DNA from: a virus
Taxonomy: Duplodnaviria; Heunggongvirae; Uroviricota; Caudoviricetes
Length of the DNA: 9,278 nucleotides
IMG/VR virus record: IMGVR_UViG_2690316243_000015
Span: 1-9,278 of that record
Reading direction: 5' to 3' (one strand)
Shown here piece after piece: positions 1-9,278 of the stretch. The notes beneath the pieces are model-generated. The model was not told the origin of the DNA and searched no databases. It worked only from the letters and a program-made list of their open reading frames with translations. How positions within the stretch are numbered: the first letter of the stretch is position 1; each line of letters starts with the position of its first letter. The position numbers and the translations under genes are program-made.

Positions 1-351
1 TCACGGCGCAGAAGTGTACCAACCGAAACTTGTTAACCCGGCATCGCAGCGCTCACGATTAAGCACACGTGGCGGGTTTTCTCTGGTCATCAACTCAAGC
101 AAGGCATTGCCTCCCTGCGTCTCTAGGCGGTATTGCCTATCGGTAGTGGTAATGGCATCCGGCAATAACTTTATGGCGGCCTGGCTAAAGTCTCGCGGTG
201 CGCCGTAAAATTGCGCATCAACAATATGAACCACATCGCCGTTAATCGTTGTCCGATAACGGTCTGGCTGTATGGTAAAGCCCCCACAATGGATAGCAGA
301 TAGTGCCGGTGCCGAGGAGATCAGGCCGGCTGCCAGAATGTATGGCTTCAT
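1..351 (-). CDS. Putative exported protein, partial (C-terminus lies beyond the window start); N-terminal signal-peptide-like segment
   Basis: ORF-track ORF 1..351; N-terminus MKPYILAAGLISSAPALSAIHC has a basic n-region, hydrophobic core and ALSA-type cleavage context. Start ATG (349-351) overlaps the stop of the upstream peptidase gene as ATGA. No recognised family. Confidence 0.4.
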   Translation of the reverse strand: MKPYILAAGLISSAPALSAIHCGGFTIQPDRYRTTINGDVVHIVDAQFYGAPRDFSQAAIKLLPDAITTTDRQYRLETQGGNALLELMTRENPPRVLNRERCDAGLTSFGWYTSAP

Positions 352-989
352 TCTTCACCCACCAATTCATCCAGTTCAGCCAGCGTCATAGGCTTTGGTA
401 CAGGCTTGTCAATATCACCCATAATGCGCTGGAAGTTGCTGGCAGGCATATGGTTACGGTTCTCCAGTATTTTCGCCAGCGCGATAACATCCCACCATTT
501 CAGGGCAATCAGCGCCTCAGCACGGGAAAGGGATATTCTCTGTATATCAGCATCCTCCCCACCAGCCACCCGGTATACCTCTGATAAATCACGAACATTT
601 TTCATGTCTGCTTTCCCGGACGTTTCCATCAGTGCGTTAATATCATCCCCCGTATAGCGTGATTGCGCGACGATACCAGCCAGAGAGATAACCATAGCCC
701 GGCATACCTGGTCTATCAGACGTAACCTGGTGTCATCATTCGAGAGGGTGTAAGACTTAACCTCAGCCACATTCCGTGGATAGTTGGCGTGCCATACCGC
801 GACAGCTCCACATTCATCAACATCGCCGCTAAGGTAGGTTTTTGCCACTCGGTTATTACCCGATAACGCAATTTCTACCTCCTGTATGCCGAAAAACCAT
901 GCGGCTATCGCATGACCTGCTTCATGTATTGCAAGATGTCTGGGCCAGCGATAGCTGCCGAACTCAATAATGATGGGTTGCGTACTCAT
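348..989 (-). CDS. HExxH zinc-metallopeptidase-like protein (FtsH/M41-like peptidase domain without an ATPase module)
   Basis: Motif AIHEAGHAIAAW resembles the FtsH YHEAGHA zinc site; downstream SLAGIVAQSRYTGDDIN loosely resembles the FtsH protease-domain LGGRAAE..TGA..D region. Start placed at ATG 987-989 (MSTQP...) because of a GAGGGAAG Shine-Dalgarno ~6 nt upstream; the ORF-track ORF extends to 1067 but that would overlap the upstream gene. Confidence 0.55.
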   Translation of the reverse strand: MSTQPIIIEFGSYRWPRHLAIHEAGHAIAAWFFGIQEVEIALSGNNRVAKTYLSGDVDECGAVAVWHANYPRNVAEVKSYTLSNDDTRLRLIDQVCRAMVISLAGIVAQSRYTGDDINALMETSGKADMKNVRDLSEVYRVAGGEDADIQRISLSRAEALIALKWWDVIALAKILENRNHMPASNFQRIMGDIDKPVPKPMTLAELDELVGEE

Positions 990-999
990 ATCTTCCCTC

Positions 1000-1434
1000 T
1001 CAGAATGGCGTTTCATCGTCGAATGGTGGGCGTTGGTCGTATTCATCACGGGATGGCTGCTGCGCACGTCTCAGCGCGTCCGTTGCCTGTCCCCGCTGTC
1101 CTGCCTTCCCGCCGGGGCGTACCGTTCTGGCGCTGATCACACTGTCGGCTACTACCTGATACCCCTGCTGTGTACCGCCGTCCTGCCCTGTCCACTGGTT
1201 GAGTTGCATATTGCCTGCCACGCTCACAAGGTCGCCTTTCTGGTGCTTTGCCAGCGCATCGGCCTGCTTCCCAAAAGCAATAACGCCCAGCCAGAAGGTT
1301 GACTCTCCCGCCTCTGCCGCATTACAGGGGAGAGACACCGCCAGCCGCGCCATAGCCATGTTGTTACCGTTCGTTGTGGTGCGGGTCTGGGGATCTGCCA
1401 CCAGCCGCCCGTATGCTGAAATTTGTGCTGTCAT
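1000..1434 (-). CDS. Divergent single-stranded DNA-binding protein (SSB-like OB fold with acidic C-terminal tail)
   Basis: Aligns by eye to E. coli SSB: [15 protein letters not shown] vs [40 protein letters not shown] vs [35 protein letters not shown] vs RKWTDQSGQ; C-terminus PPFDDETPF vs DFDDDIPF. GGAGAG Shine-Dalgarno 9 nt upstream; ATGA overlap with the upstream gene. Confidence 0.7.
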   Translation of the reverse strand: [144 protein letters not shown]

Positions 1435-1688
1435 GCTGTCTGCTCTCCGGTTTTAACGTTGATGGTTGTCACCTGTTCCGCTTCGGCAATCTCCCGTTCT
1501 GTCAGCGTGGCAAAATTTGCCGCCGCCGTTGTCATGAATGCGCTTATCAGTTCGGGATGTGCTTTTGCGTATCCTTCTCCCGTGTTGCGGTCGATGATTT
1601 TTATCGCCAACCTCAGCCAGTGCTCTGTAAGGTCAATAGTGCGGTTATGTGGTTTCTTCTGATTATTAAGTTTTCCTGATGTGTGCAT
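1431..1688 (-). CDS. Small hypothetical protein (85 aa from MHTSGK...; the ORF could start at 1748)
   Basis: ORF-track ORF 1431..1748; internal ATG at 1686-1688 has GAGGGGG ~13 nt upstream and avoids running into the iteron region. Stop overlaps the SSB start (ATGA). No recognised family. Confidence 0.45.
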   Translation of the reverse strand: MHTSGKLNNQKKPHNRTIDLTEHWLRLAIKIIDRNTGEGYAKAHPELISAFMTTAAANFATLTEREIAEAEQVTTINVKTGEQTA

Positions 1689-1737
1689 TTTTGTTTTTAC
1701 CCCCTCGTTTAAAAAGTTTTGAGTTGTACCTCCCCCC

Positions 1738-1967
1738 CCTCTACCCATCTACCCGAATGCTCCTCAGGTCAGTAATGGCGCGGCTTTCAGCGGGTAGATA
1801 GCTTTTTGGGCTCCTCTACCTGCCGTCTACCCGGCTACCTGAAATTGATAAAATCAGGTAGATGAGGTAGAGAGCTTTTGAACCCCCTCTACCTGCCATC
1901 TACCTGATATATTCTACTGAATAATATATATTTATTTACTTAAGGTAGAGGGGGGAGAGGGCTTTTG
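1738..1967. repeat. Iteron-like repeat array plus AT-rich tract; putative replication origin for the adjacent primase/helicase
   Basis: At least seven direct copies of (T)CTACC (at 1741, 1748, 1815, 1826, 1835, 1888, 1899) and four inverted GGTAGA (1793, 1857, 1866, 1944). Two ~28-bp units, GGTAGATAGCTTTTTGGGCTCCTCTACC (1793-1820) and GGTAGAGAGCTTTTGAACCCCCTCTACC (1866-1893), each carry internal inverted ends. A near-pure AT tract lies at ~1905-1943. Located in the only sizeable intergenic gap, immediately 3' of the primase gene. Confidence 0.55.
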
Positions 1968-1974
1968 CCAAAAA

Positions 1975-3729
1975 CTATAAAAACGCGTCGCAATCGTCTG
2001 TTGTTATTGCGTTAGTCTGCGTTACCCCCTTAATTTTCCGCGTAATATATTCATGTCCGTAAACTTTCGCCGCTGGCTTCATAGCTTTGCTGAACTCAGC
2101 TACGTTCAGCGGCTTGTTCCTGCCGGCATACGCCATAAACGCCAGATAGACGCGGTAAAGGCTGTTTCTGGTCGTGTACCTGGAAGAGTCACCGCCGCCG
2201 CCCATCATCAGGCCGCGTGCTTCTTCCAGAAAGTTAAGGAACTGGCAAAATTCAATAACCGGATCCGTCTGTTGCTTTATTGCCAGTGCTTCATCACCGT
2301 CACGCTGTTCCAGTAGTAAAGCCCGTGCCTTTTCAGGGTCGGCAAAGTTCGCCAGCAAGCGGCGGATAATGACTGGGATTTCAGCCGCGATTTTTTCCGG
2401 TAGTTCTCTGTCTTTTTCGGCCTCACTGACGATATTGTCGAAACGGAAAATCACGCGACGACGTGCCACGCCTCCGGCCCGTTCGGTGAATATCATCGGG
2501 TTGTTATTGGTTGCCAGCACAACCGCCCTGATTACCGCTGTGAAACGCTTCTCATATTTCGGGTTAATTTCCACGGGGTCGCCGCCAGTGATTTTCTTGA
2601 TGCCCGTGCCTTCGCCTGTATATTTCGGCTGGTCTGCCAGGACAATAAGCCGACTCCCGACAACCTGCGCACGTCCACCAGCATCATCAAGCGATGTCAT
2701 TTCAGCGCTTACCGTGTTCTGTTTCCCTGCCAGAAGGCTGGCTATGTGCGTGAAAGTGCTCTTGCCGCTCCCGCCGTCTCCGGTGGCCTCAATAAACATC
2801 TGCCAGTCGTGGCGGTTCGCCATAATCATGTACAGCGCGGCGCATATGCGCATCATCTTGTGCGGGTCTTTTCCGGCTGCATGTTCAAGCCATTTGTGGA
2901 AGTTCGGCGCGTTGTCGCGGATGTTTTCCCCTGGTACTGGTGGCGTGTATTCAATGCCGTTGTGTGTGGTGAGCCAGTTCTCCGGCTGGTGCGGTGAAAA
3001 TTCCCCCGTTATCAGGTTAAGCACACCATTGGCAAACGGCAGCAAATCACCGGACGGCTCGCCCATCGGGTCAGCAATAACTTTTAACGCTTCAACGGCG
3101 TTATTAATTGCCCGCTTGCTGAATGTGGCCCCGTGTTCTGAATAAACCGCCACCATTTCGCGGCTCAGTTCCATTGTGCTGACCGGACACCATACCCCGC
3201 CGCGCCATACGTGAACGATTTCACTTTCAGGATGCACGCAAACGCCATCAAAGCGATCGGCAAGCAGCTGCGCGCGCTCACTGTCCGCCATCTGCGAAAG
3301 TTGCGCCTTTTGCGTTACCGGAAGCTCAATCACCAGACCATCAGAAAGATTCTGGCGCTCACGGGCCAGATATTCGCGCCAGTTCTGCACCTCCTGGCCG
3401 TGCATACCCTCAGGATAAAAATTTGCATCCTGTACGCCTGCCGCCGCCAGCTTCTGACCAATCGCCTTGATCATTACAGGCTCAAGATGTCCGGCTCTGT
3501 ATATGCGTGCTGATTTTCTGCCATCCGGCACAATTTGCAGATTATCTAGTTCGGATAGCTGCTGCTCTCCAAGCCACACAGGAGGCTCATTATCTCCGGC
3601 TGTACGCGCGTCATGTTCCTGCCACTGTTTCGCGTGTGCCCAGGCATCACTACCCGCAAAAATGATCACTTCGGTTTGAGCGTGTTTTATTCCGCGTGGC
3701 TGTTTTTTTACGTTCGGTGCCAGTTTCAT
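1975..3729 (-). CDS. P4 alpha-type replication protein (phage/plasmid primase, P4-family C-terminal domain with SF3-type helicase Walker A GDGGSGKST)
   Basis: 584-aa ORF; Walker A TGDGGSGKSTF; later VVLATNNNP resembles SF3 helicase motif C; overall resemblance to P4-family primase C-terminal region. AGGGG Shine-Dalgarno 8 nt upstream; ATGA overlap with the upstream gene. Confidence 0.8.
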   Translation of the reverse strand: MKLAPNVKKQPRGIKHAQTEVIIFAGSDAWAHAKQWQEHDARTAGDNEPPVWLGEQQLSELDNLQIVPDGRKSARIYRAGHLEPVMIKAIGQKLAAAGVQDANFYPEGMHGQEVQNWREYLARERQNLSDGLVIELPVTQKAQLSQMADSERAQLLADRFDGVCVHPESEIVHVWRGGVWCPVSTMELSREMVAVYSEHGATFSKRAINNAVEALKVIADPMGEPSGDLLPFANGVLNLITGEFSPHQPENWLTTHNGIEYTPPVPGENIRDNAPNFHKWLEHAAGKDPHKMMRICAALYMIMANRHDWQMFIEATGDGGSGKSTFTHIASLLAGKQNTVSAEMTSLDDAGGRAQVVGSRLIVLADQPKYTGEGTGIKKITGGDPVEINPKYEKRFTAVIRAVVLATNNNPMIFTERAGGVARRRVIFRFDNIVSEAEKDRELPEKIAAEIPVIIRRLLANFADPEKARALLLEQRDGDEALAIKQQTDPVIEFCQFLNFLEEARGLMMGGGGDSSRYTTRNSLYRVYLAFMAYAGRNKPLNVAEFSKAMKPAAKVYGHEYITRKIKGVTQTNAITTDDCDAFL

Positions 3730-4025
3730 TTTTTACCCCTGAATGCGTTAAGCATGTTTTTCATTTCCTGAATATTTGCCCGCGCCTTTTCCCTGCTGGT
3801 GGACTGTTTGCGTGGCGCGGCCTGTACCAGCGAAAAATCACGCCGGAACTGATAAACAGGCATCACGCAATCATAGTCGTAGCCTTCACGGCGGTAAGTG
3901 ATGCGCCGTTCTGCCACGCCTTTAATCGTTACCGTACCGCCGTAGTTATCCCGGAAAATATCTCCGTGTCTGATTTCAGGCCGAGCGGGGCCGCTGGCAG
4001 TAAAGCCAGAATTTTTCTTTTTCAT
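3726..4025 (-). CDS. Small hypothetical protein (99 aa), paralogue of the 60-aa protein at 5270-5452
   Basis: Shared motif GGTVTIKGVAERRITYRREGYDYDCVMPVYQFRRDF vs GALVTVESVSHNRVTFYRDGYQSPCVQPLARFMKEF. AGGAAAA Shine-Dalgarno; stop overlaps the primase start. Confidence 0.55.
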   Translation of the reverse strand: MKKKNSGFTASGPARPEIRHGDIFRDNYGGTVTIKGVAERRITYRREGYDYDCVMPVYQFRRDFSLVQAAPRKQSTSREKARANIQEMKNMLNAFRGKK

Positions 4026-4029
4026 GGTT

Positions 4030-4230
4030 TTATTTTCCTGTCAGCAGTTCCGGTTTTATTTCCGCACGAATACAGAGTTCAGAAAAAAATTCAGGAGAAC
4101 CAACAATCTCATTACTTTTCAGTCGGCATTGTGATTTCACTTTCCCTTTATCCAGGTAAACCAGTACGCGTCCTGTATAATCTGACGGCACATTCAGCAC
4201 TACAGGTAAGTGCGCTTCATGATGATTCAT
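4030..4230 (-). CDS. Small hypothetical protein (66 aa), paralogue of the adjacent 71-aa protein
   Basis: YTGRVLVYLDKGKVKSQCRLKSNEIVGSPEFFSELCIRA aligns with FTGQLLVNVDKGRVVCNYHLPDEAIVATRESLQELAERA. GGGGGTGAG Shine-Dalgarno directly upstream of the ATG. Confidence 0.5.
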   Translation of the reverse strand: MNHHEAHLPVVLNVPSDYTGRVLVYLDKGKVKSQCRLKSNEIVGSPEFFSELCIRAEIKPELLTGK

Positions 4231-4432
4231 GTCTCACCCCCTGAATATTCGCGTTAATCATTCCGGCACGTTCTGCGAGTTCCTGTAATGATTCCCTTGT
4301 TGCGACAATTGCTTCATCTGGCAGGTGGTAATTACATACCACGCGACCTTTATCCACATTGACCAGTAGCTGCCCGGTAAATTTCTCACGAAACTGAATG
4401 CGGTTAAGGTCGGTAAGTGACAGATTAATCAT
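4217..4432 (-). CDS. Small hypothetical protein (71 aa), paralogue of the adjacent 66-aa protein
   Basis: See the paralogue alignment above; GGAGGT Shine-Dalgarno 7 nt upstream; 8-nt overlap with the upstream 283-aa gene and 14-nt overlap with the downstream 66-aa gene. Confidence 0.5.
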   Translation of the reverse strand: MINLSLTDLNRIQFREKFTGQLLVNVDKGRVVCNYHLPDEAIVATRESLQELAERAGMINANIQGVRHESS

Positions 4433-5276
4433 GGCCCACCTCCTGACGAATACGGGCGGCGAATACCATCACGCAGCCATCAGGAGATTGCTGGCGGGCT
4501 TCCTGTTCGCTGGTGGCCACGATGTGAATCACGCGCGGTTGTGCTGTGCTCAGGGCGATAAAGCGCCAGATAAAGGCAGTTTGAGAATGTATAAGGGTAG
4601 GGGTAGTAGCCATGTTGGCAGCCTCCTTCAGATAGCAGGTTACGCTACCACCGGAAACGCCAATTTCGCTGGTGGTAGCCCAGACAGGGTTGGCGTAACC
4701 GGCTCTGAAGGATACCGGCGCTTCCGAAGAAGCCCCCGCCTGAGCCACCATTGATTGACAAAGGCGCTGGATTATACACCAACGCCCAAAAAATGGGTGA
4801 GTCAGACCTACGACATAAAAAAAGACGCTCGGCGCGTCATATGTCGCCTTCAGAATTTTCAGGACGCCAATCCTGGCCCCCGTTTTATGAGGTGCCTTAT
4901 AACCATAAACCGTGTTGCCGCATAACGGCAAGCTCTTTTTTATGGACTCCGAAAACTCACTATTGGAAGAACCAGAGGCACAGTACATCGCGCTCATTTC
5001 GTTAACGTTGCGCATGCGGACGAAGATTTTTGTGGAGTCACTACGCGAGCAGAACAGGTCATCTACGACCAGAAATTCTCTGGCGCAGCCGCTGACCTTC
5101 TCAACGCTAATATCATCGCCCGAGATTTCTGGCATGGTTAAGGCATCCGTTCCGACCACCAGCAAATGATAAACTTTGTTTGTATCTGCTGTATTAATGC
5201 CTGACTTTGCCGCCATATTGCTGGATTTTGGCGACATGCCAGCCAGTGAAAATATCTTCTTCTGGGCGGTTAGCAT
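4425..5276 (-). CDS. Hypothetical protein (283 aa), function unknown
   Basis: Long ORF with GGAGG Shine-Dalgarno 7 nt upstream of the ATG at 5274-5276; start overlaps the stop of the upstream small gene (ATGCTAA). No motif I can assign with confidence. Confidence 0.6.
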
Positions 5277-5452
5277 TTGTTAACCTCCGCGAACTCCTTC
5301 ATGAAACGTGCCAGCGGTTGCACGCATGGCGATTGATACCCGTCGCGATAAAACGTCACTCGGTTGTGAGACACGCTTTCGACAGTAACGAGTGCTCCGT
5401 GGGCATCTTTGTAGCGTTTTTGAGGTTGTGGTGTTCCTGTCGGCTTAAACAT
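5270..5452 (-). CDS. Small hypothetical protein (60 aa from MFKPTG...), paralogue of the 99-aa protein at 3726-4025
   Basis: ORF-track ORF extends to 5539, but the ATG at 5450-5452 has GGAGG 7 nt upstream and overlaps the AntA stop (ATGTTTAA), whereas the longer form would overlap AntA by ~95 nt. Shares the TFYRDGY..C..P..F motif with the 99-aa protein. Confidence 0.5.
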   Translation of the reverse strand: MFKPTGTPQPQKRYKDAHGALVTVESVSHNRVTFYRDGYQSPCVQPLARFMKEFAEVNKC

Positions 5453-6254
5453 GGACCGCCTCCAGACGCTTAGCGAGCCAGCGTTGCGACAGGCGGGTGA
5501 GTTCTCCTTTGCGCTGCTCATATTCCATGCCCATATCAATTAACGTGATATTGGTGCTTTCGAGATAGGCGAGGTGTTCAAGCTGTGCTGCGTTCATGCT
5601 GTCCCGTGGTTCGCCAGTAATGCCATTTGCCTGCGCCCACTGCTTCGCCGTCATGCCACCCAGCACGATACGGGCGATCATGTTGCTCTCGTTGCTGTAG
5701 TGGCGCTGCTGCGTCGTTTTGCCCATCTCGGCACGGGCCATATTCAGCGCATCGCACATTGGCTTAAAGTTGTTTGCGGCACTGAGACGGGCTTTTAGCT
5801 GGCGACGATAGCGGGCGGCGATTTCAGGCACGCTACGCTGTAATTCTTCCTCGCACTGGATGAAATAACGGCGGATAGCGCGGCCCTGCTCGTTGCGTTC
5901 AACCATTGCCACTTCTTTAGCCATATCCAGCGATAGCAGGTAATCATGCTCTATTTGCTGGCGAGTTTTTGCGCTCGCCCGTTTTGGCGTGCTCAAATTT
6001 TCAACACGGATAAAATCGGTTCCGGCAATAAAACCGTACTGGTCAATTCGGACTTTAATCCAGTTAGTAAAGTCGCGGCCCACCCCCAGCGCTTTATGCA
6101 ACGCCTTAGCGCTCACAATATTGGCTTCACGCCCGCCAATGCGTCCGGCAATAACGGGAACAATAGCGGCAAAGTCGTTGCCGTTAATTACTCCCGTGTT
6201 AACGTTGGGTTGCGGGGCGGCCCCCGAACTGAATCGGCTTTTTTCGATAGTCAT
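5445..6254 (-). CDS. AntA/AntB-family phage antirepressor-like protein
   Basis: SAKALHKALGVGRDFTNWIKVRIDQYGFIAGTDF and LSLDMAKEVAMVERNEQGRAIRRYFIQCEE match the conserved AntA-domain signature as I recall it. Start placed at ATG 6252-6254 (MTIEK...) with GGAG 8 nt upstream; the ORF-track start at 6314 would overlap the upstream gene. Confidence 0.6.
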   Translation of the reverse strand: MTIEKSRFSSGAAPQPNVNTGVINGNDFAAIVPVIAGRIGGREANIVSAKALHKALGVGRDFTNWIKVRIDQYGFIAGTDFIRVENLSTPKRASAKTRQQIEHDYLLSLDMAKEVAMVERNEQGRAIRRYFIQCEEELQRSVPEIAARYRRQLKARLSAANNFKPMCDALNMARAEMGKTTQQRHYSNESNMIARIVLGGMTAKQWAQANGITGEPRDSMNAAQLEHLAYLESTNITLIDMGMEYEQRKGELTRLSQRWLAKRLEAVHV

Positions 6255-6267
6255 ATTTTCGGCTCCG

Positions 6268-6699
6268 TTATGCGGCGGTGAGATTGTCCGGGTATAGATT
6301 GAGAATGTCGGCAATTTCAGGCTGAGAAAGTCCCTGATAGCCGCCAGCGTCGGCGTTATGGTTCACAAGCCGAATAACTTTTAGAACGTCACCGCGCCCG
6401 GTAAAGCGATAGCGTAAATGTGACCCTATCCCGTCGGGGTTCTTTTCGTCTATACGCTCAAGCTGAATATCAAGCCTGCGCTCTAACTCGCTGGCGTAGT
6501 TCCTTCCAGACGAAAGGCGGCAATAACGCAGAATGTCATTTTCTGTCCATCCCTCTATACCAGTACGCAGCATATAGACTCTGGCACGATGCTTTTTCGG
6601 TGTGCGCTTTGGTGCTTGAAGGGATTTTGTAAGGGGCGTAACATCAGATACGCGAATATCTGAATTAGCCGCCTGTAATGGGCGGTTTTTCTTTTCCAT
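6268..6699 (-). CDS. Hypothetical protein (143 aa), basic N-terminus, function unknown
   Basis: ORF with AAGGTGG Shine-Dalgarno; its ATG overlaps the AlpA stop by 1 nt (TGATG), indicating co-translation with alpA. No recognised family. Confidence 0.5.
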   Translation of the reverse strand: MEKKNRPLQAANSDIRVSDVTPLTKSLQAPKRTPKKHRARVYMLRTGIEGWTENDILRYCRLSSGRNYASELERRLDIQLERIDEKNPDGIGSHLRYRFTGRGDVLKVIRLVNHNADAGGYQGLSQPEIADILNLYPDNLTAA

Positions 6700-6902
6700 C
6701 AGGCCACCTTCCCGCGGCGTTCTGCCAGCCAGTTGTGAATCTCAACCGCATCAAACGCAGTTATTTTTTCTCCCAGCTTTACCGGACGTGGTAGTGAACC
6801 GTTTCTTACTTTACGGTCGATGGTGGATACACTAACGCCCAGCAATTCAGCCAGGCGGAAGCGTCTGATATAGCCTTTTGTAGGGATAGTGTCGATGTTC
6901 AT
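6699..6902 (-). CDS. alpA: AlpA/Vis-family transcriptional regulator / excision accessory protein (MerR-like HTH)
   Basis: 67 aa; IRRFRLAELLGVSVSTIDRKVRNGSLPRPVKLGEKITAFDAVEIHNWL fits the AlpA (CP4-57 regulatory protein) pattern of an HTH followed by P.P.KLG and a conserved W. Typical size and position next to a P4-type integrase. Confidence 0.8.
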   Translation of the reverse strand: MNIDTIPTKGYIRRFRLAELLGVSVSTIDRKVRNGSLPRPVKLGEKITAFDAVEIHNWLAERRGKVA

Positions 6903-6985
6903 GATTCCCGTAACCTCTTAGCGATAGTTGTTGCTTCGTTACGGGTATTTAATGGCGTGCACGCTCAAAAAGGAATGATCGTATT

Positions 6986-7028
6986 TTTTACTATCGTGAT
7001 AGTAAAATTTACTATCACCTTTTTTTCC
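6986..7028. promoter_or_regulatory. Perfect 23-bp palindrome GTGATAGTAAAATTTACTATCAC (6996-7018) with an extra TACTATC half-site (6989-6995), followed by a T7 run; operator-like site or terminator
   Basis: Direct reading: three TACTATC/GATAGTA half-sites centred ~10-11 bp apart; lies ~95-125 nt upstream of the alpA ATG and overlaps the stop codon of the 282-aa gene. Confidence 0.4.
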
Positions 7029-7863
7029 CTGCCGTGGTGCGTTCTTCCGGTGTTCTGTCTGCGTCGGCTATGAGTTTCTTCAGGTAATCTATGGATGGCT
7101 CATCATAGCCGCCCCCCAAAAGCGCCCAGTGGTTTATTGTGGCGTTCGCCCATGCTTCGTTGGTTTCCTTCCCGTTCTTCCCTTTACACTCTTCTGGGTA
7201 GTGCCGCTTCACATAAATCAACGCCAAGAGGCAAATTTCGCGCTTTTGCCTGTGGCGCTCTCTGTTTCCGTGCTCAACGTTTTTAACATCCTCATAAAGA
7301 GCTTGTAAGTTTATGCGAGTTTCGGGGCTGTATATGGGCTGGTTTTTGTCCATGCATTCGCCGATATATTCAACCCACGGCCTTGTTATGTACAAATCCT
7401 CTACGGATATTTCGTGGAAGGCATGTTTTGTATAATCGAGAAAAAAATAATAATTCGCACTTACGTCTAGTTCTCTTTTTCTGTGTGCGGGGCTGAATAT
7501 GCGTGCGGGAGTGTCAATAGAATCAAGCCCTGCGATGTCGAGTATATAGGAGGCGTTAACATGCCATAGCCCAAGCACATGGCAATCTATATGATTTACA
7601 ACGCCTGCCTTAAAGCTTTTTTCGTCCTCTACTTCAGTGATTATGTCGGCAAGTAATAAGCAGTCTTCTTTGACGTCTGGGAATAAAGAGCAATTGCGGT
7701 AAAGACTCGCGATGCTATGTAATGTGCCGTCGTAGCCGCAAAGGTACGCGCTCAAATATATAGATTCTGCCGCCGCCATAATCAAAAGATCATCAATATC
7801 TATTTCTAATAATTCGGCTGCTCTGTTAAGCCTGAAAAAAGGGGCGGGTGGTAATTTTTTCAT
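7015..7863 (-). CDS. Hypothetical protein (282 aa); AT-rich orphan gene between int and alpA
   Basis: Intact ORF with AAGGTG Shine-Dalgarno 7 nt upstream. Hand GC counts on three 60-nt lines inside it give ~35-43%, against ~60% for sampled lines in int and the primase. No recognised catalytic motif. Confidence 0.6.
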   Translation of the reverse strand: MKKLPPAPFFRLNRAAELLEIDIDDLLIMAAAESIYLSAYLCGYDGTLHSIASLYRNCSLFPDVKEDCLLLADIITEVEDEKSFKAGVVNHIDCHVLGLWHVNASYILDIAGLDSIDTPARIFSPAHRKRELDVSANYYFFLDYTKHAFHEISVEDLYITRPWVEYIGECMDKNQPIYSPETRINLQALYEDVKNVEHGNRERHRQKREICLLALIYVKRHYPEECKGKNGKETNEAWANATINHWALLGGGYDEPSIDYLKKLIADADRTPEERTTAGKKR

Positions 7864-7958
7864 TGCGTCACCTTTTACGCTGCGCCTTATTTTGTGATTG
7901 AGCCAGGCGGTAAGGCTTCCCGCTTTTCGCCCCGTCGAGCTAGGCTCAATCTATTCAG

Positions 7959-9278
7959 TTAGTTCGCCCTTCTGAGAGGCGTTACGTTGTAGTCTTTTCC
8001 GCTTTCCAGTGCCACCAGCAGATCAGCCCACTGTGCCAGTGCTGCTTTACGCTCATCAAAATACTGATGGCGGTTATAAATCCCCTCTACGCCCTTAATG
8101 CGATGATTGAGGCATCGTTCCGCCACAACAGGATCAACACCCAACGCTGCTAAATGAGTACGTGCGGTGCGTCGAAAGTCGTGAATCGTGAAATTAGGCA
8201 CATCCGGCATTTCGGCGCGAACCTTAGCCAGTGCTACGGGTAAAGTGCTTTCCTGAATATGTGGGATCATTCTGTTTTGCATCTTCCTGGCCGGAAGCAC
8301 CCATGCGCTATTACATGAAAAGGTGTGTAGCTCTCTCAACCATTCAACGGCTGGGGAAGGTAGAGGTATATCAATAGGGTCTCCGTTTTTGCTGCGTTCT
8401 TCCGGCAAATGCCATACCGCACCATCTAAATCAAACTCTTCCCATCGTGCGGCGCATAATTCCATTTTGCGGACGCATAACGCTAACAGTAATTTGAACG
8501 TGATTTCGTTCTGGCGACTGAATCCCTTAGCCGTGCGCATGGCTTTGAATAGCTGGATTAACTCATCGCGGGTTAACCAGCGGTCACGGGCAGCTTCTTT
8601 CCCTCCGGCGTCTGCCACCTCAAAGGCTGAACAGGGGTTAATCTCTAGCGCGTGCCGTTTGATTCCGTAGTCGAATATGCGGCGCGTCCATCTCAGCACG
8701 TCCGTTGCTATGGTCGGCGCTCCACGGTCAACAATACCTTTCAGCATGTCATCGATATGGCGCGGTTTCACGTCCTCTACCTTCATGCTGCCAATGCAGG
8801 GGTTTATATCTTTGTCGATACGGCGGCGGAGTATATCGGGGTGCTTCCAGCGCGGGAGGATCTGACGCTCAAAGTATTCAGCGGCAAGCTCTGAAACGCG
8901 CATAGCGTTCTTCTCTGCTTCCATCTTCGCCAGTGCTTCGGTTTTGCGCTTCTGCTTCTCTCCTGCAACGTCATAGCCCAGCGCAACGCGAGCCGATAGC
9001 TCTTTGGCTGTCTCTCTGGCCTTTGATAGTGATAGCTCGCTATACGAACCAATTAGCATGGCGCGGGACTTCCCTGCGAGTTTATAGCGGAATCTCCATG
9101 TGGGGGTTTTGTCGGCTTCACGGTAACGTAGGTATAAACCGTTACCGTCTGCCCGCCCCTCGAATCGCTCTCCGCTCTTAATCCATGCGCGGATCTGCAT
9201 GTCTGTTAGTTTTGGCATTTTGCGAATATCCAAACTTTGAATAGGGGGTGTACCCAAAGCAATGTACCCAAACCTCAT
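7959..9278 (-). CDS. int: Tyrosine site-specific integrase (P4-like); 5' end at or beyond the window edge
   Basis: C-terminal catalytic region with HDFRRTARTHL (HxxR) and terminal IYNRHQYFDER (candidate catalytic Tyr); N-terminal region typical of phage integrase arm-binding domains. The ORF reaches the window edge at 9278; an internal ATG at 9216-9218 (MPKLTDMQIRAW...) is a plausible true start but has no clear Shine-Dalgarno. Confidence 0.9.
   Translation of the reverse strand: MRFGYIALGTPPIQSLDIRKMPKLTDMQIRAWIKSGERFEGRADGNGLYLRYREADKTPTWRFRYKLAGKSRAMLIGSYSELSLSKARETAKELSARVALGYDVAGEKQKRKTEALAKMEAEKNAMRVSELAAEYFERQILPRWKHPDILRRRIDKDINPCIGSMKVEDVKPRHIDDMLKGIVDRGAPTIATDVLRWTRRIFDYGIKRHALEINPCSAFEVADAGGKEAARDRWLTRDELIQLFKAMRTAKGFSRQNEITFKLLLALCVRKMELCAARWEEFDLDGAVWHLPEERSKNGDPIDIPLPSPAVEWLRELHTFSCNSAWVLPARKMQNRMIPHIQESTLPVALAKVRAEMPDVPNFTIHDFRRTARTHLAALGVDPVVAERCLNHRIKGVEGIYNRHQYFDERKAALAQWADLLVALESGKDYNVTPLRRAN

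Follow-up and report, generated by a model that had tools for sequence, protein, structure and literature searches.

A captured P22-type pac fragment in an EcCIMP1-type island of an Escherichia/Shigella-type chromosome and its possible role in packaging by a helper phage

The stretch of DNA analysed here, positions 1 to 9,278 of the IMG/VR virus record IMGVR_UViG_2690316243_000015 (9,278 nucleotides (nt), hereafter the window), is part of a discrete integrative phage satellite and not of a prophage. The satellite is a member of the EcCIMP1 family, a 'Type C' phage-inducible chromosomal island (PICI), and what sets it apart among Gram-negative PICIs as to packaging is a captured P22-type packaging site (pac), which lies in a short fragment of a small-terminase gene (terS) antisense to the island operon (Table 1). 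An earlier reading of the window from its letters alone (the original prediction) had seen neither sid-, delta- or psu-like genes nor genes resembling a terminase small subunit, and had left the mobilisation mechanism open. At the protein level the former statement holds, but a piece of terS DNA with a pac site is present, and mobilisation is therefore less open than had been thought, since the captured site points to P22-like helpers. Based on sequence comparison, we lean, though only slightly, towards pac-site mimicry, in which a P22-like helper would package multimers of the island by headful filling.

The terS fragment and its pac site

In a megablast search of 50,697 phage records, the 118 nt of the fragment were 91.5% identical to terS of many P22-like phages, and the only other near-identical phage DNA was a short match to the C4 RNA region of the island. 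Aligned with P22 by blastn, positions 5022-5128 were 93.5% identical over 107 nt and lay over the annotated pac feature (BK000583, positions 4-25). The fragment lacks a start codon and is not a gene; in E. coli ET729 its counterpart is listed by the Prokaryotic Genome Annotation Pipeline as a pseudogene, an incomplete 'DNA-packaging protein'. The window matches the 12-bp pac consensus nowhere but in the pac-like 22-mer of the fragment (GAAGATTTTTGTGGAGTCACTA). This 22-mer agrees with the site of P22 itself (GAAGATTTATCTGAAGTCGTTA) at 17 of 22 positions, with five differences, and with a rare pac allele (GAAGGTTTTTGTGGAGTCACTA) at 21 of 22. The island therefore carries what is found in satellites that mimic a packaging signal, namely a sequence copy of a helper site, 21/22 identical and homologous in position to P22 pac.

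The range of natural pac alleles was assessed by scanning IMG/VR with a pattern conserved downstream of pac, which returned about 120 P22-type terS loci with four pac variants: the P22 type at 58 loci, GAAGGTTTTTCTGACGTCACAT at 56, its minor variant GAAGGCTTTTCTGACATCACCA at 3, and GAAGGTTTTTGTGGAGTCACTA at 3. All three loci of the rare allele (L021, L026 and L027) are full-length genes for a 162-amino-acid (aa) TerS, followed by terL. Because full-length terS genes carry it at 21/22, the island 22-mer is a genuine phage pac allele and not a degenerate P22 site. The same GAAGGTTTTTGTGGAGTCACTA is identical to the satellite copies of EcCIMP1-type and ET729-type islands. Between the three main terS alleles, identity is 88-99% except in nt 201-300, where it drops to about 64%; this interval contains pac and, judged from these alignments, looks like a co-varying cassette for TerS/pac specificity. 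As delimited in four loci (L002, L013, L014 and L021), the cassette comprises 100 nt encoding aa 68-100, with 98% identity downstream of it.

The fragment is widespread in E. coli. A 381-bp module containing it (4900-5280) is present at a coverage of at least 80% in 484 of 5,426 complete genomes (about 9%), always under the annotations 'ash family protein' and DUF4222. The islands that bear it use at least three integrases and attachment (att) sites: yicC, as in the window; tRNA-Thr, as in ET729 and EcCIMP1; and a third site, beside xanthine-dehydrogenase-type genes and a LysM/M23 peptidase gene, in locus L009, where a block of 1,161 bp around the fragment is 100% identical to the window and the integrase is a different one. 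When viral-collection loci were picked by the adjacent isrK promoter, independently of pac, 13 of 13 had the fragment. A metagenome scan gave 29 gut contigs with a satellite copy, none of them circular or obviously virion-derived. E. coli 39EVA is a relative without the terS fragment, and the notion that the slot of the fragment serves as a general 'packaging-signal cassette' is unsupported, its 39EVA counterpart having no phage match.

The distribution of changes within the fragment suggests continued exchange with phages. Among 15 distinct sequences (the 13 viral-collection loci, L016 and the window), the 22-mer had a nucleotide diversity of 0.029, compared with about 0.05 for its flanks and 0.104 for the 85 nt downstream from it. 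The downstream value is high because the haplotypes match different phage terS alleles: the window fits the P22-type allele at 84/85 positions, the L016 type fits a second allele at 82/85, and the EcCIMP1 type fits the rare allele at 79-80/85. Variable sites in the fragment are third codon positions when read as terS but not when read in the ash open reading frame (ORF), inside which the fragment lies. We read these patterns as a single capture that was probably followed by repeated gene conversion from co-resident P22-like phages; such conversion would imply recurrent physical contact of the islands with these phages. The constancy of the 22-mer may reflect selection.

Packaging by a P22-like helper and competing explanations

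Packaging-signal mimicry is established in the satellites P4, SaPIbov5, EfCIV583 and PLE (PMC11417361). The same mode of packaging is supported here because no other packaging function was found in the 12.4-kb island: searches against Pfam, PHROGs, NCBIfam, PADLOC and PDB sequences revealed no head, capsid-size, Psu/Sid/Delta, Rpp or terminase protein. The literature searched mentions neither a P22-type pac fragment in an E. coli PICI nor signal mimicry by enterobacterial PICIs or with P22-like helpers, an absence that is not proof.

In the mechanism we propose, a P22-like (Lederbergvirus) phage with a compatible TerS would infect the cell or be induced, and the island would be switched on through AlpA, excise and replicate from its own origin. 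The TerS and TerL proteins of the helper would then recognise the island's pac copy and cut nearby, and headful filling of full-sized P22-type capsids would enclose about 3.5 tandem copies of the island. The estimate follows from the 41.7-kb genome of P22, and full-size capsids are expected because the island has no capsid-size gene. P22 packaging runs in the direction of terS transcription. In the island, packaging would proceed towards increasing window coordinates, that is, towards int, and if begun before excision it would run on into yicC-rph-pyrE in the manner of lateral transduction. Once injected, the terminally redundant multimer would resolve and Int would reinsert a monomer at yicC.

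The closest experimental precedent is EcCIMP1, a 20-kb island of E. coli MP1 that was excised with the P22-like phage vB_EcoP_Kapi1 and transduced, but only at very low frequency. Its authors assigned it to the 'Type C' PICIs, could not identify its packaging mechanism and noted that few EcCIMP1 strains carry Kapi1 (PMC11773190). EcCIMP1 has its own copy of the fragment (L153 16950-17060), in which 111 nt align with the rare phage allele at 93.7% identity. The TerS of Kapi1 (L154 18704-19132), a 142-aa protein, is unrelated, and its gene has no DNA match to the fragment. Kapi1 was ruled out as the donor of the fragment, having no terS similarity to either EcCIMP1 or the window. Kapi1 may be an inducer but a poor packager, with a better helper in existence, and its unrelated TerS would then explain both the low transfer and the small number of EcCIMP1 strains that carry it.

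Several points weigh against packaging through the pac copy. The matching pac allele is rare, being found at 3 of the roughly 120 P22-type terS loci in IMG/VR; of 258 E. coli genomes in which terS of the P22 type is full-length, one has it, and no satellite copy is seen in that genome. A prophage of E. coli MB1159 (NZ_CP174273, near 1.58 Mb) is an example of a phage with the matching allele. The 22-mer differs from P22 at 5 of 22 positions and departs at one position from the pseudo-pac pattern published for P22 (PMC10996546). The sole demonstrated helper of EcCIMP1 has an unrelated TerS and transfers the island at very low frequency (PMC11773190). The fragment lies inside the conserved ash ORF, which could therefore account for part of its conservation. 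Finally, the constancy of the 22-mer could be mechanical and not selected, as the 22-mer is at the edge of the shared homology, beyond the gene-conversion tracts.

Some of these points are also what one would expect if the fragment were a neutral recombination scar absorbed into the ash ORF, with the island moved by another signal or protein or by low-frequency generalised transduction. The ash ORF is open in 15 of 15 relatives and shows a third-position excess in the N-terminal parts that flank the fragment, relatives such as 39EVA do without the fragment, the matching phage allele is rare, and EcCIMP1 is transferred, at a low rate, by a published helper whose TerS is unrelated. We nevertheless consider a scar unlikely. 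The fragment has its left edge at the pac 22-mer, in which 21-22 of 22 positions agree with a natural pac allele; variation within the fragment follows the terS frame and not the ash frame, and the ash protein is therefore not what constrains it; and no other packaging function was found. The orientation of the fragment, opposite to the operon, suggests a further explanation at the RNA level, in which read-through RNA from the minus strand, antisense to codons ~88-125 of the helper terS, interferes with late expression or senses it. No terminator lies between DUF4222 and the isrK terminator, the neighbourhood is rich in regulatory RNAs (isrK and C4), and the downstream 85 nt keep 93-99% identity to current phage alleles. 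However, RNA action does not explain why the homology starts at pac, and the island itself needs a helper terminase if it is packaged. No promoter or stable structure specific to the segment was predicted, and all copies derive from one acquisition, hence their orientation is uninformative. For these reasons we regard the RNA explanation as quite improbable.

It is also conceivable that the pac copy acts mainly as a decoy, the sites of the replicating island drawing terminase off the phage genome and so protecting the host population. Satellites commonly interfere with helper packaging (PMC11417361), EcCIMP1 is reported to influence superinfection by its helper (PMC11773190), and the replication machinery of the island would amplify the site. 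Yet a terminase that cuts at the decoy also packages that DNA, which makes decoy and transfer hard to separate, and no capsid-size or terminase-blocking gene was found; we give a predominantly decoy role a very low probability. The idea that the island is a decaying, immobile remnant whose gene order is a fossil could draw on truncated copies with the same integrase that are interrupted by insertion sequence (IS) elements (L005-L007) and on the incompleteness of the element ('Type C') by SatelliteFinder criteria. We find this hardly credible, as the ORFs are without exception intact and their starts coupled, an att repeat remains at either end, the 1.16-kb regulatory block recurs without a single difference in an island with another integrase (L009), and the family member EcCIMP1 excises and transfers (PMC11773190).

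Packaging through a captured pac site, if correct, has consequences beyond this island. More than 6,000 'Type C' PICI-like elements have been left out of satellite catalogues for want of packaging genes (PMC10085698). If a terS piece of about 110 nt suffices, such islands would be genuine satellites whose helper is predictable from DNA alone, and the captured pac site gives a directly testable helper prediction. The poor transfer of EcCIMP1 by Kapi1 would be explained by the wrong TerS, and a better helper could be named. In addition, about 9% of complete E. coli genomes would hold a P22-like headful start site, from which neighbouring chromosomal genes could be packaged too. A broader idea, which we hold to be doubtful, is that terS of P22-like phages contains a hypervariable pac cassette whose diversification is driven by gene-poor satellites, those of the same ~9% of genomes, that parasitise the phages solely via a captured pac allele. 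This would explain the rarity of the matched allele (1 of 258 prophages), and the helper range of an island could be read directly from its 22-mer.

The island and its genes

The window is the exact reverse complement of positions 4452-13729 of locus L008 (GCA_001258795.1), a 21.7-kb piece of an Escherichia/Shigella-type chromosome. Alignment of the island ends with the empty K-12 yicC-dinD site gave a total length of 12,368 bp, so that the window represents about three quarters of the island, which continues for 2.96 kb past window position 1. The island is inserted at the 3' end of yicC and is flanked by imperfect direct repeats of 21 bp and 19 bp, in keeping with the att repeats at a specific site that characterise PICIs. 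One repeat (CAGATTCAGAATATCGAGTAA) is the last 21 nt of yicC and lies 131-151 nt past window position 9278; the other (CAGATTCAATATTGAGTAA) lies 2.94-2.96 kb past position 1. The original prediction had placed the attachment site and any tRNA target just beyond position 9278. The attachment core is indeed there, but the target is the 3' end of yicC, and no tRNA was found in the window or in L008. Its proposal to look for att repeats in both flanks, and for packaging or capsid-redirection genes further left, was carried out: the repeats were found on both sides, the 3 kb past position 1 yielded no such gene, and neither a complete prophage nor a region without att repeats, either of which would have spoken against a mobile island, was encountered. 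These 3 kb contain four ORFs, one of them PRiA4_ORF3, and none gave a head or packaging match in Pfam, PHROGs, NCBIfam or PADLOC.

Each end of the island has repeats of the types GTGTACACAARGGTGTACC and GGGTACA some 80-130 nt inward of the att core (window 9218-9278; L008 4431-4456 and 16588-16613); they are candidate arm-type integrase sites. At the int end they overlap the annotated start of int, with GGTACA-type repeats both over this start and upstream of it; the true start is probably Met21, at position 9218. An identical integrase protein occurs in 1001 blocks of the collection. In L005, L006 and L007, which have the identical integrase, an IS element (HTH_Tnp_1/rve) ends the island after antA, and fimbrial usher genes come next; decayed versions of the island are thus found at the yicC site as well.

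Table 1. Features of the window (positions in window coordinates; E, E-value; SD, Shine-Dalgarno sequence)
Feature	Position	Strand	Basis or remark
Tyrosine integrase, 439 aa as called	7959..9278	-	Pfam Arm-DNA-bind_3, Phage_int_M, Phage_integrase
int-alpA RNA motif, directly after int stop codon	7884..7950	-	Rfam RF02996, 60.6 bits (gathering 35.8)
282-aa accessory protein between int and alpA	7015..7863	-	ORF only
AlpA-family regulator/excisionase	6699..6902	-	Pfam Phage_AlpA, E = 2.2e-8
143-aa protein, no assigned function; start overlaps alpA stop by 1 nt	6268..6699	-	Kept in EcCIMP1-type islands
AntA/AntB antirepressor, 269 aa as called	5445..6254	-	Pfam AntA, E = 3e-24; PHROG anti-repressor Ant, E = 1e-42
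DUF4222 protein, 60 aa; 8-nt overlap with antA	5270..5452	-	Pfam, PHROG
P22-type small-terminase gene fragment, terS nt ~264-374, antisense to island operon	5011..5128	+	megablast, blastn
pac-like 22-mer GAAGATTTTTGTGGAGTCACTA, positionally homologous to P22 pac	5022..5043	+	Alignment
Long 'ash family' ORF, 283 aa; SD GGAGG; 7-nt overlap with DUF4222	4425..5276	-	Pfam Phage_ASH, residues 124-230
isrK-like small RNA	4818..4895	-	Rfam RF01394, 62.9 bits (gathering 50)
C4-type antisense RNA (P1 c4 / P4 cI class)	4668..4755	-	Rfam RF01695, 79.9 bits (gathering 45)
Icd-like protein, 62 aa; strong SD AAGGAGG	4425..4613	-	NCBIfam NF033153, 72.6 bits (cut-off 25); PHROG matches
Two small paralogous ORFs, 71 aa (4217-4432) and 66 aa (4030-4230)	4030..4432	-	Both phrog_340; overlaps of 8 and 14 nt
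Second DUF4222 protein, 99 aa; 4-nt overlap with primase start	3726..4025	-	Pfam, PHROG
Replication protein, 584 aa: D5_N, DUF5906 (SF3 helicase-type), Pox_D5 C-terminal	1975..3729	-	Pfam; PHROG DNA primase, E = 5.5e-170
Putative origin: GGTAGA iteron cluster in both orientations; AT-rich ~1905-1940	1740..1949		Repeat analysis
105-aa protein, phrog_1231 (function unassigned)	1431..1748	-	PHROG
SSB	1000..1434	-	Pfam SSB, E = 5.6e-17; PHROG
213-aa protein, HEAGH (HExxH) motif	348..989	-	Sequence
116-aa protein, signal-peptide-like N-terminus	1..351	-	Sequence

Every credible ORF of the window is on the minus strand, as had been predicted. The count of 17 genes was not borne out: the window holds 15 protein genes, and a sixteenth if the Icd-like ORF is counted apart from the long ash ORF that contains it, and besides these three RNA genes (int-alpA, isrK and C4), all on the minus strand and all above the Rfam gathering score. 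From high to low coordinates the genes run int, 282-aa gene, alpA, 143-aa gene, antA, DUF4222, ash/icd, two phrog_340 genes, DUF4222 and primase/helicase, followed after a 226-nt gap, the iteron region, by the genes for the 105-aa protein, the single-strand DNA-binding protein (SSB) and the 213-aa and 116-aa proteins. Pfam and PHROG matches thereby confirm the predicted order of int, cargo, alpA, regulators, primase, origin and accessory operon. The description of the genes as translationally coupled likewise stands, eight gene junctions overlapping by 1-14 nt and most starts having a Shine-Dalgarno sequence. The int-alpA RNA was also found in the relatives L001, L004 and L016.

The accessory genes gave few matches. 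The 282-aa protein had none in Pfam, PHROGs, NCBIfam, PADLOC or PDB, and its single-sequence AlphaFold2 (AF2) model was unusable (predicted local distance difference test, pLDDT, 45). The 213-aa protein, encoded downstream of SSB, had no family or PDB match either (single-sequence AF2 pLDDT 36); its HEAGH motif resembles the active site of FtsH/M41 zinc metalloproteases. A PDB sequence search with six unassigned ORFs returned nothing credible and no Rpp, Sid, Psu or Cpm, and PADLOC found no defence system. In E. coli ET729 (L015 4605-5497), the island at tRNA-Thr has a gene for a Panacea-domain protein beside PRiA4_ORF3, possibly a defence cargo or a toxin-antitoxin system located at the far end of such islands.

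The long ash ORF, in which the terS fragment lies, is composite. Its N-terminal third looks coding, its middle third coincides with isrK and C4, and its last 62 codons are the Icd-like ORF. The Phage_ASH match corresponds to nt 4587-4907, which is exactly the isrK and C4 stretch; no third-codon-position excess is seen there, and the stretch evolves with RNA covariation and without codon periodicity. In all 15 relatives the ORF (283-296 codons) is open through isrK and C4, with a third-position excess in the N-terminal parts only; in EcCIMP1 it is broken. Much of what the Phage_ASH family and the annotation 'ash family protein' capture may be RNA genes in translation. In E. coli relatives isrK and C4 recur together; two loci with weak ash matches, from Klebsiella (L017) and Pectobacterium (L018), had neither. 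A search for relatives of the ash ORF in one genome per species gave only 3 loci.

The isrK-like RNA has its own conserved promoter region at about 4896-4960, in a block that is identical in relatives, and an intrinsic terminator at 4824-4838. In the relative L004, whose ash/RNA region is unlike that of the window, the Rfam C4 target motif c4-a1b1 lies over isrK; the Rfam scan of the window itself did not return this motif. The assignment of the C4 RNA agrees with three marks of its class: a score above the gathering threshold, a covarying structure and a loop complementary to a downstream ribosome-binding site (RBS). Across six relatives, 11 of 28 base pairs show compensatory double changes, and one cell of the comparison is broken. 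The loop UCCUUCAG is exactly complementary over 8 nt to CUGAAGGA at 4624-4631, which overlaps the AAGGAGG RBS of icd. Pairing of this kind also operates in the P1 immI region and in P4 cI immunity, and the C4/Icd module stands in front of an operon that ends in the replication gene. Ribosomes arriving from the operon upstream might translate across the isrK terminator and the C4 target, overcoming C4 repression and thereby turning on the replication genes. C4 is the most diverse part of the region (nucleotide diversity 0.23). Its 17-pair outer helix and 5-pair first hairpin vary with compensatory changes, and the 6-pair stem that bears the loop is nearly invariant. The target-recognition loop itself differs between the window, L001, L004, L016 and L153 (AUCCUUCAGA, GUCUAUACAG, UUCCUUUGUG and UUCCUUGUAC), which suggests several immunity specificities among otherwise similar islands.

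The relatives of the replication protein are annotated as 'phage/plasmid primase, P4 family'. Of the 13 GGTAGA copies in the window, 10 lie in the gap after the replication gene (1740-1949), against an expectation of 2.4 for the whole window, and this gap fits an iteron origin, as had been supposed earlier from the letters alone. Within the putative origin, an element of 21-24 nt (1770-1793) matches about 90 lambdoid phage records at 95.8-100% identity, exactly in a handful of them. The match falls inside the O gene in every listed record, Kapi1, JEP4, Sf6, HK75 and Stx2a phages among them, and the Kapi1 copy is in the middle of its origin iteron array. The island origin may have borrowed a piece of a helper-type origin.

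Comparison with known satellites and immunity systems

Three of the five components of the PICI core used by SatelliteFinder (PMC10085698) are present: an integrase, a regulation module with alpA co-oriented with int, and a primase-replicase followed by an origin. A capsid morphogenesis gene was not found, nor was a small-terminase gene or Rpp, the 107-118 nt terS fragment being all that is present of the former; with three of five components, the island is therefore of 'Type C'. The P4-like core is represented by the alpha primase/helicase and AlpA. As to its ash/epsilon component, the Phage_ASH match to residues 124-230 lies on the nucleotides of the isrK and C4 RNAs; psu, delta and sid had no match in any island ORF (Pfam, PHROGs and NCBIfam). 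A P2-type cos was not found within 3 mismatches in the whole of L008, which is a weak test. The P1-immI/P4-type module of C4 antisense RNA and Icd before the primase makes the island a hybrid of PICI and P4-like features. Given a discrete island with co-oriented int and alpA, no sid, delta or psu and a core like that of EcCIMP1, the original view that it is PICI-like rather than a classical P4 is reasonable, tempered by the incomplete PICI core and the P4-type module.

EcCIMP1 is the nearest relative. It shares the order int, alpA, 143-aa-like ORF, antA, DUF4222, ash/isrK/C4, icd and primase, with 87.5% identity over window positions 4595-5924 (1.3 kb) and 79% over 6058-6709. EcCIMP1 also carries the terS/pac fragment, at the corresponding position, lacks genes for terminase and capsid size, and has PRiA4_ORF3 at its far end. 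By contrast, its integrase is another one, targeting tRNA-Thr near proA; its primase is a 919-aa TOPRIM/DUF927 protein, whereas that of the present island is a 584-aa D5_N/DUF5906 protein; and it carries P22-type ejection-protein genes and PerC where the present island has SSB and the HExxH protein. The EcCIMP1 report (PMC11773190) does not describe the pac fragment. PICIs of the EcCICFT073 type (PMC6092414, PMC6739421) have the same co-oriented int and alpA and the same primase-replicase followed by an origin, and use helper capsids without a large terminase of their own. They differ in having cos, an Rpp protein that re-targets the helper TerS, capsid morphogenesis genes and lambda-like cos helpers; the present island, lacking Rpp and cos, has a pac fragment that comes from a P22-like phage with headful packaging.

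A short copy of the helper packaging site lets the helper TerS and TerL package the satellites SaPIbov5 (cos), EfCIV583 and the Vibrio PLE (pac) (PMC11417361), as we propose for the island. These are unrelated elements in unrelated hosts, and PLE shares only 14 identical bp and adds its own packaging proteins (PMC11417361). The present island, in which no accessory packaging protein was found, has a terS piece of 107-118 nt with 21-22 of 22 pac positions. The resemblance to P4 consists of an AlpA/Vis-type regulator upstream of a C4/cI-class antisense RNA and then a replication operon, with a primase whose kin are of the 'P4 family'. P4, too, copies the packaging signal of its helper instead of encoding a terminase. 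Unlike P4, the island lacks sid, delta and psu, its int adjoins alpA, and its predicted helper is a P22-like podovirus, whereas that of P4 is a P2-like myovirus. In its control region, the island resembles the immI loci of P1 and P7 (c4, icd, ant) and the isrK locus of Salmonella Gifsy-1, sharing the pairing of the C4 loop with the RBS of icd, an isrK-type RNA upstream and an AntA/AntB protein in the operon. The arrangement departs from that of P1 and P7 in that the antirepressor stands upstream, not downstream, of c4-icd, and the genes under control are those of island replication.

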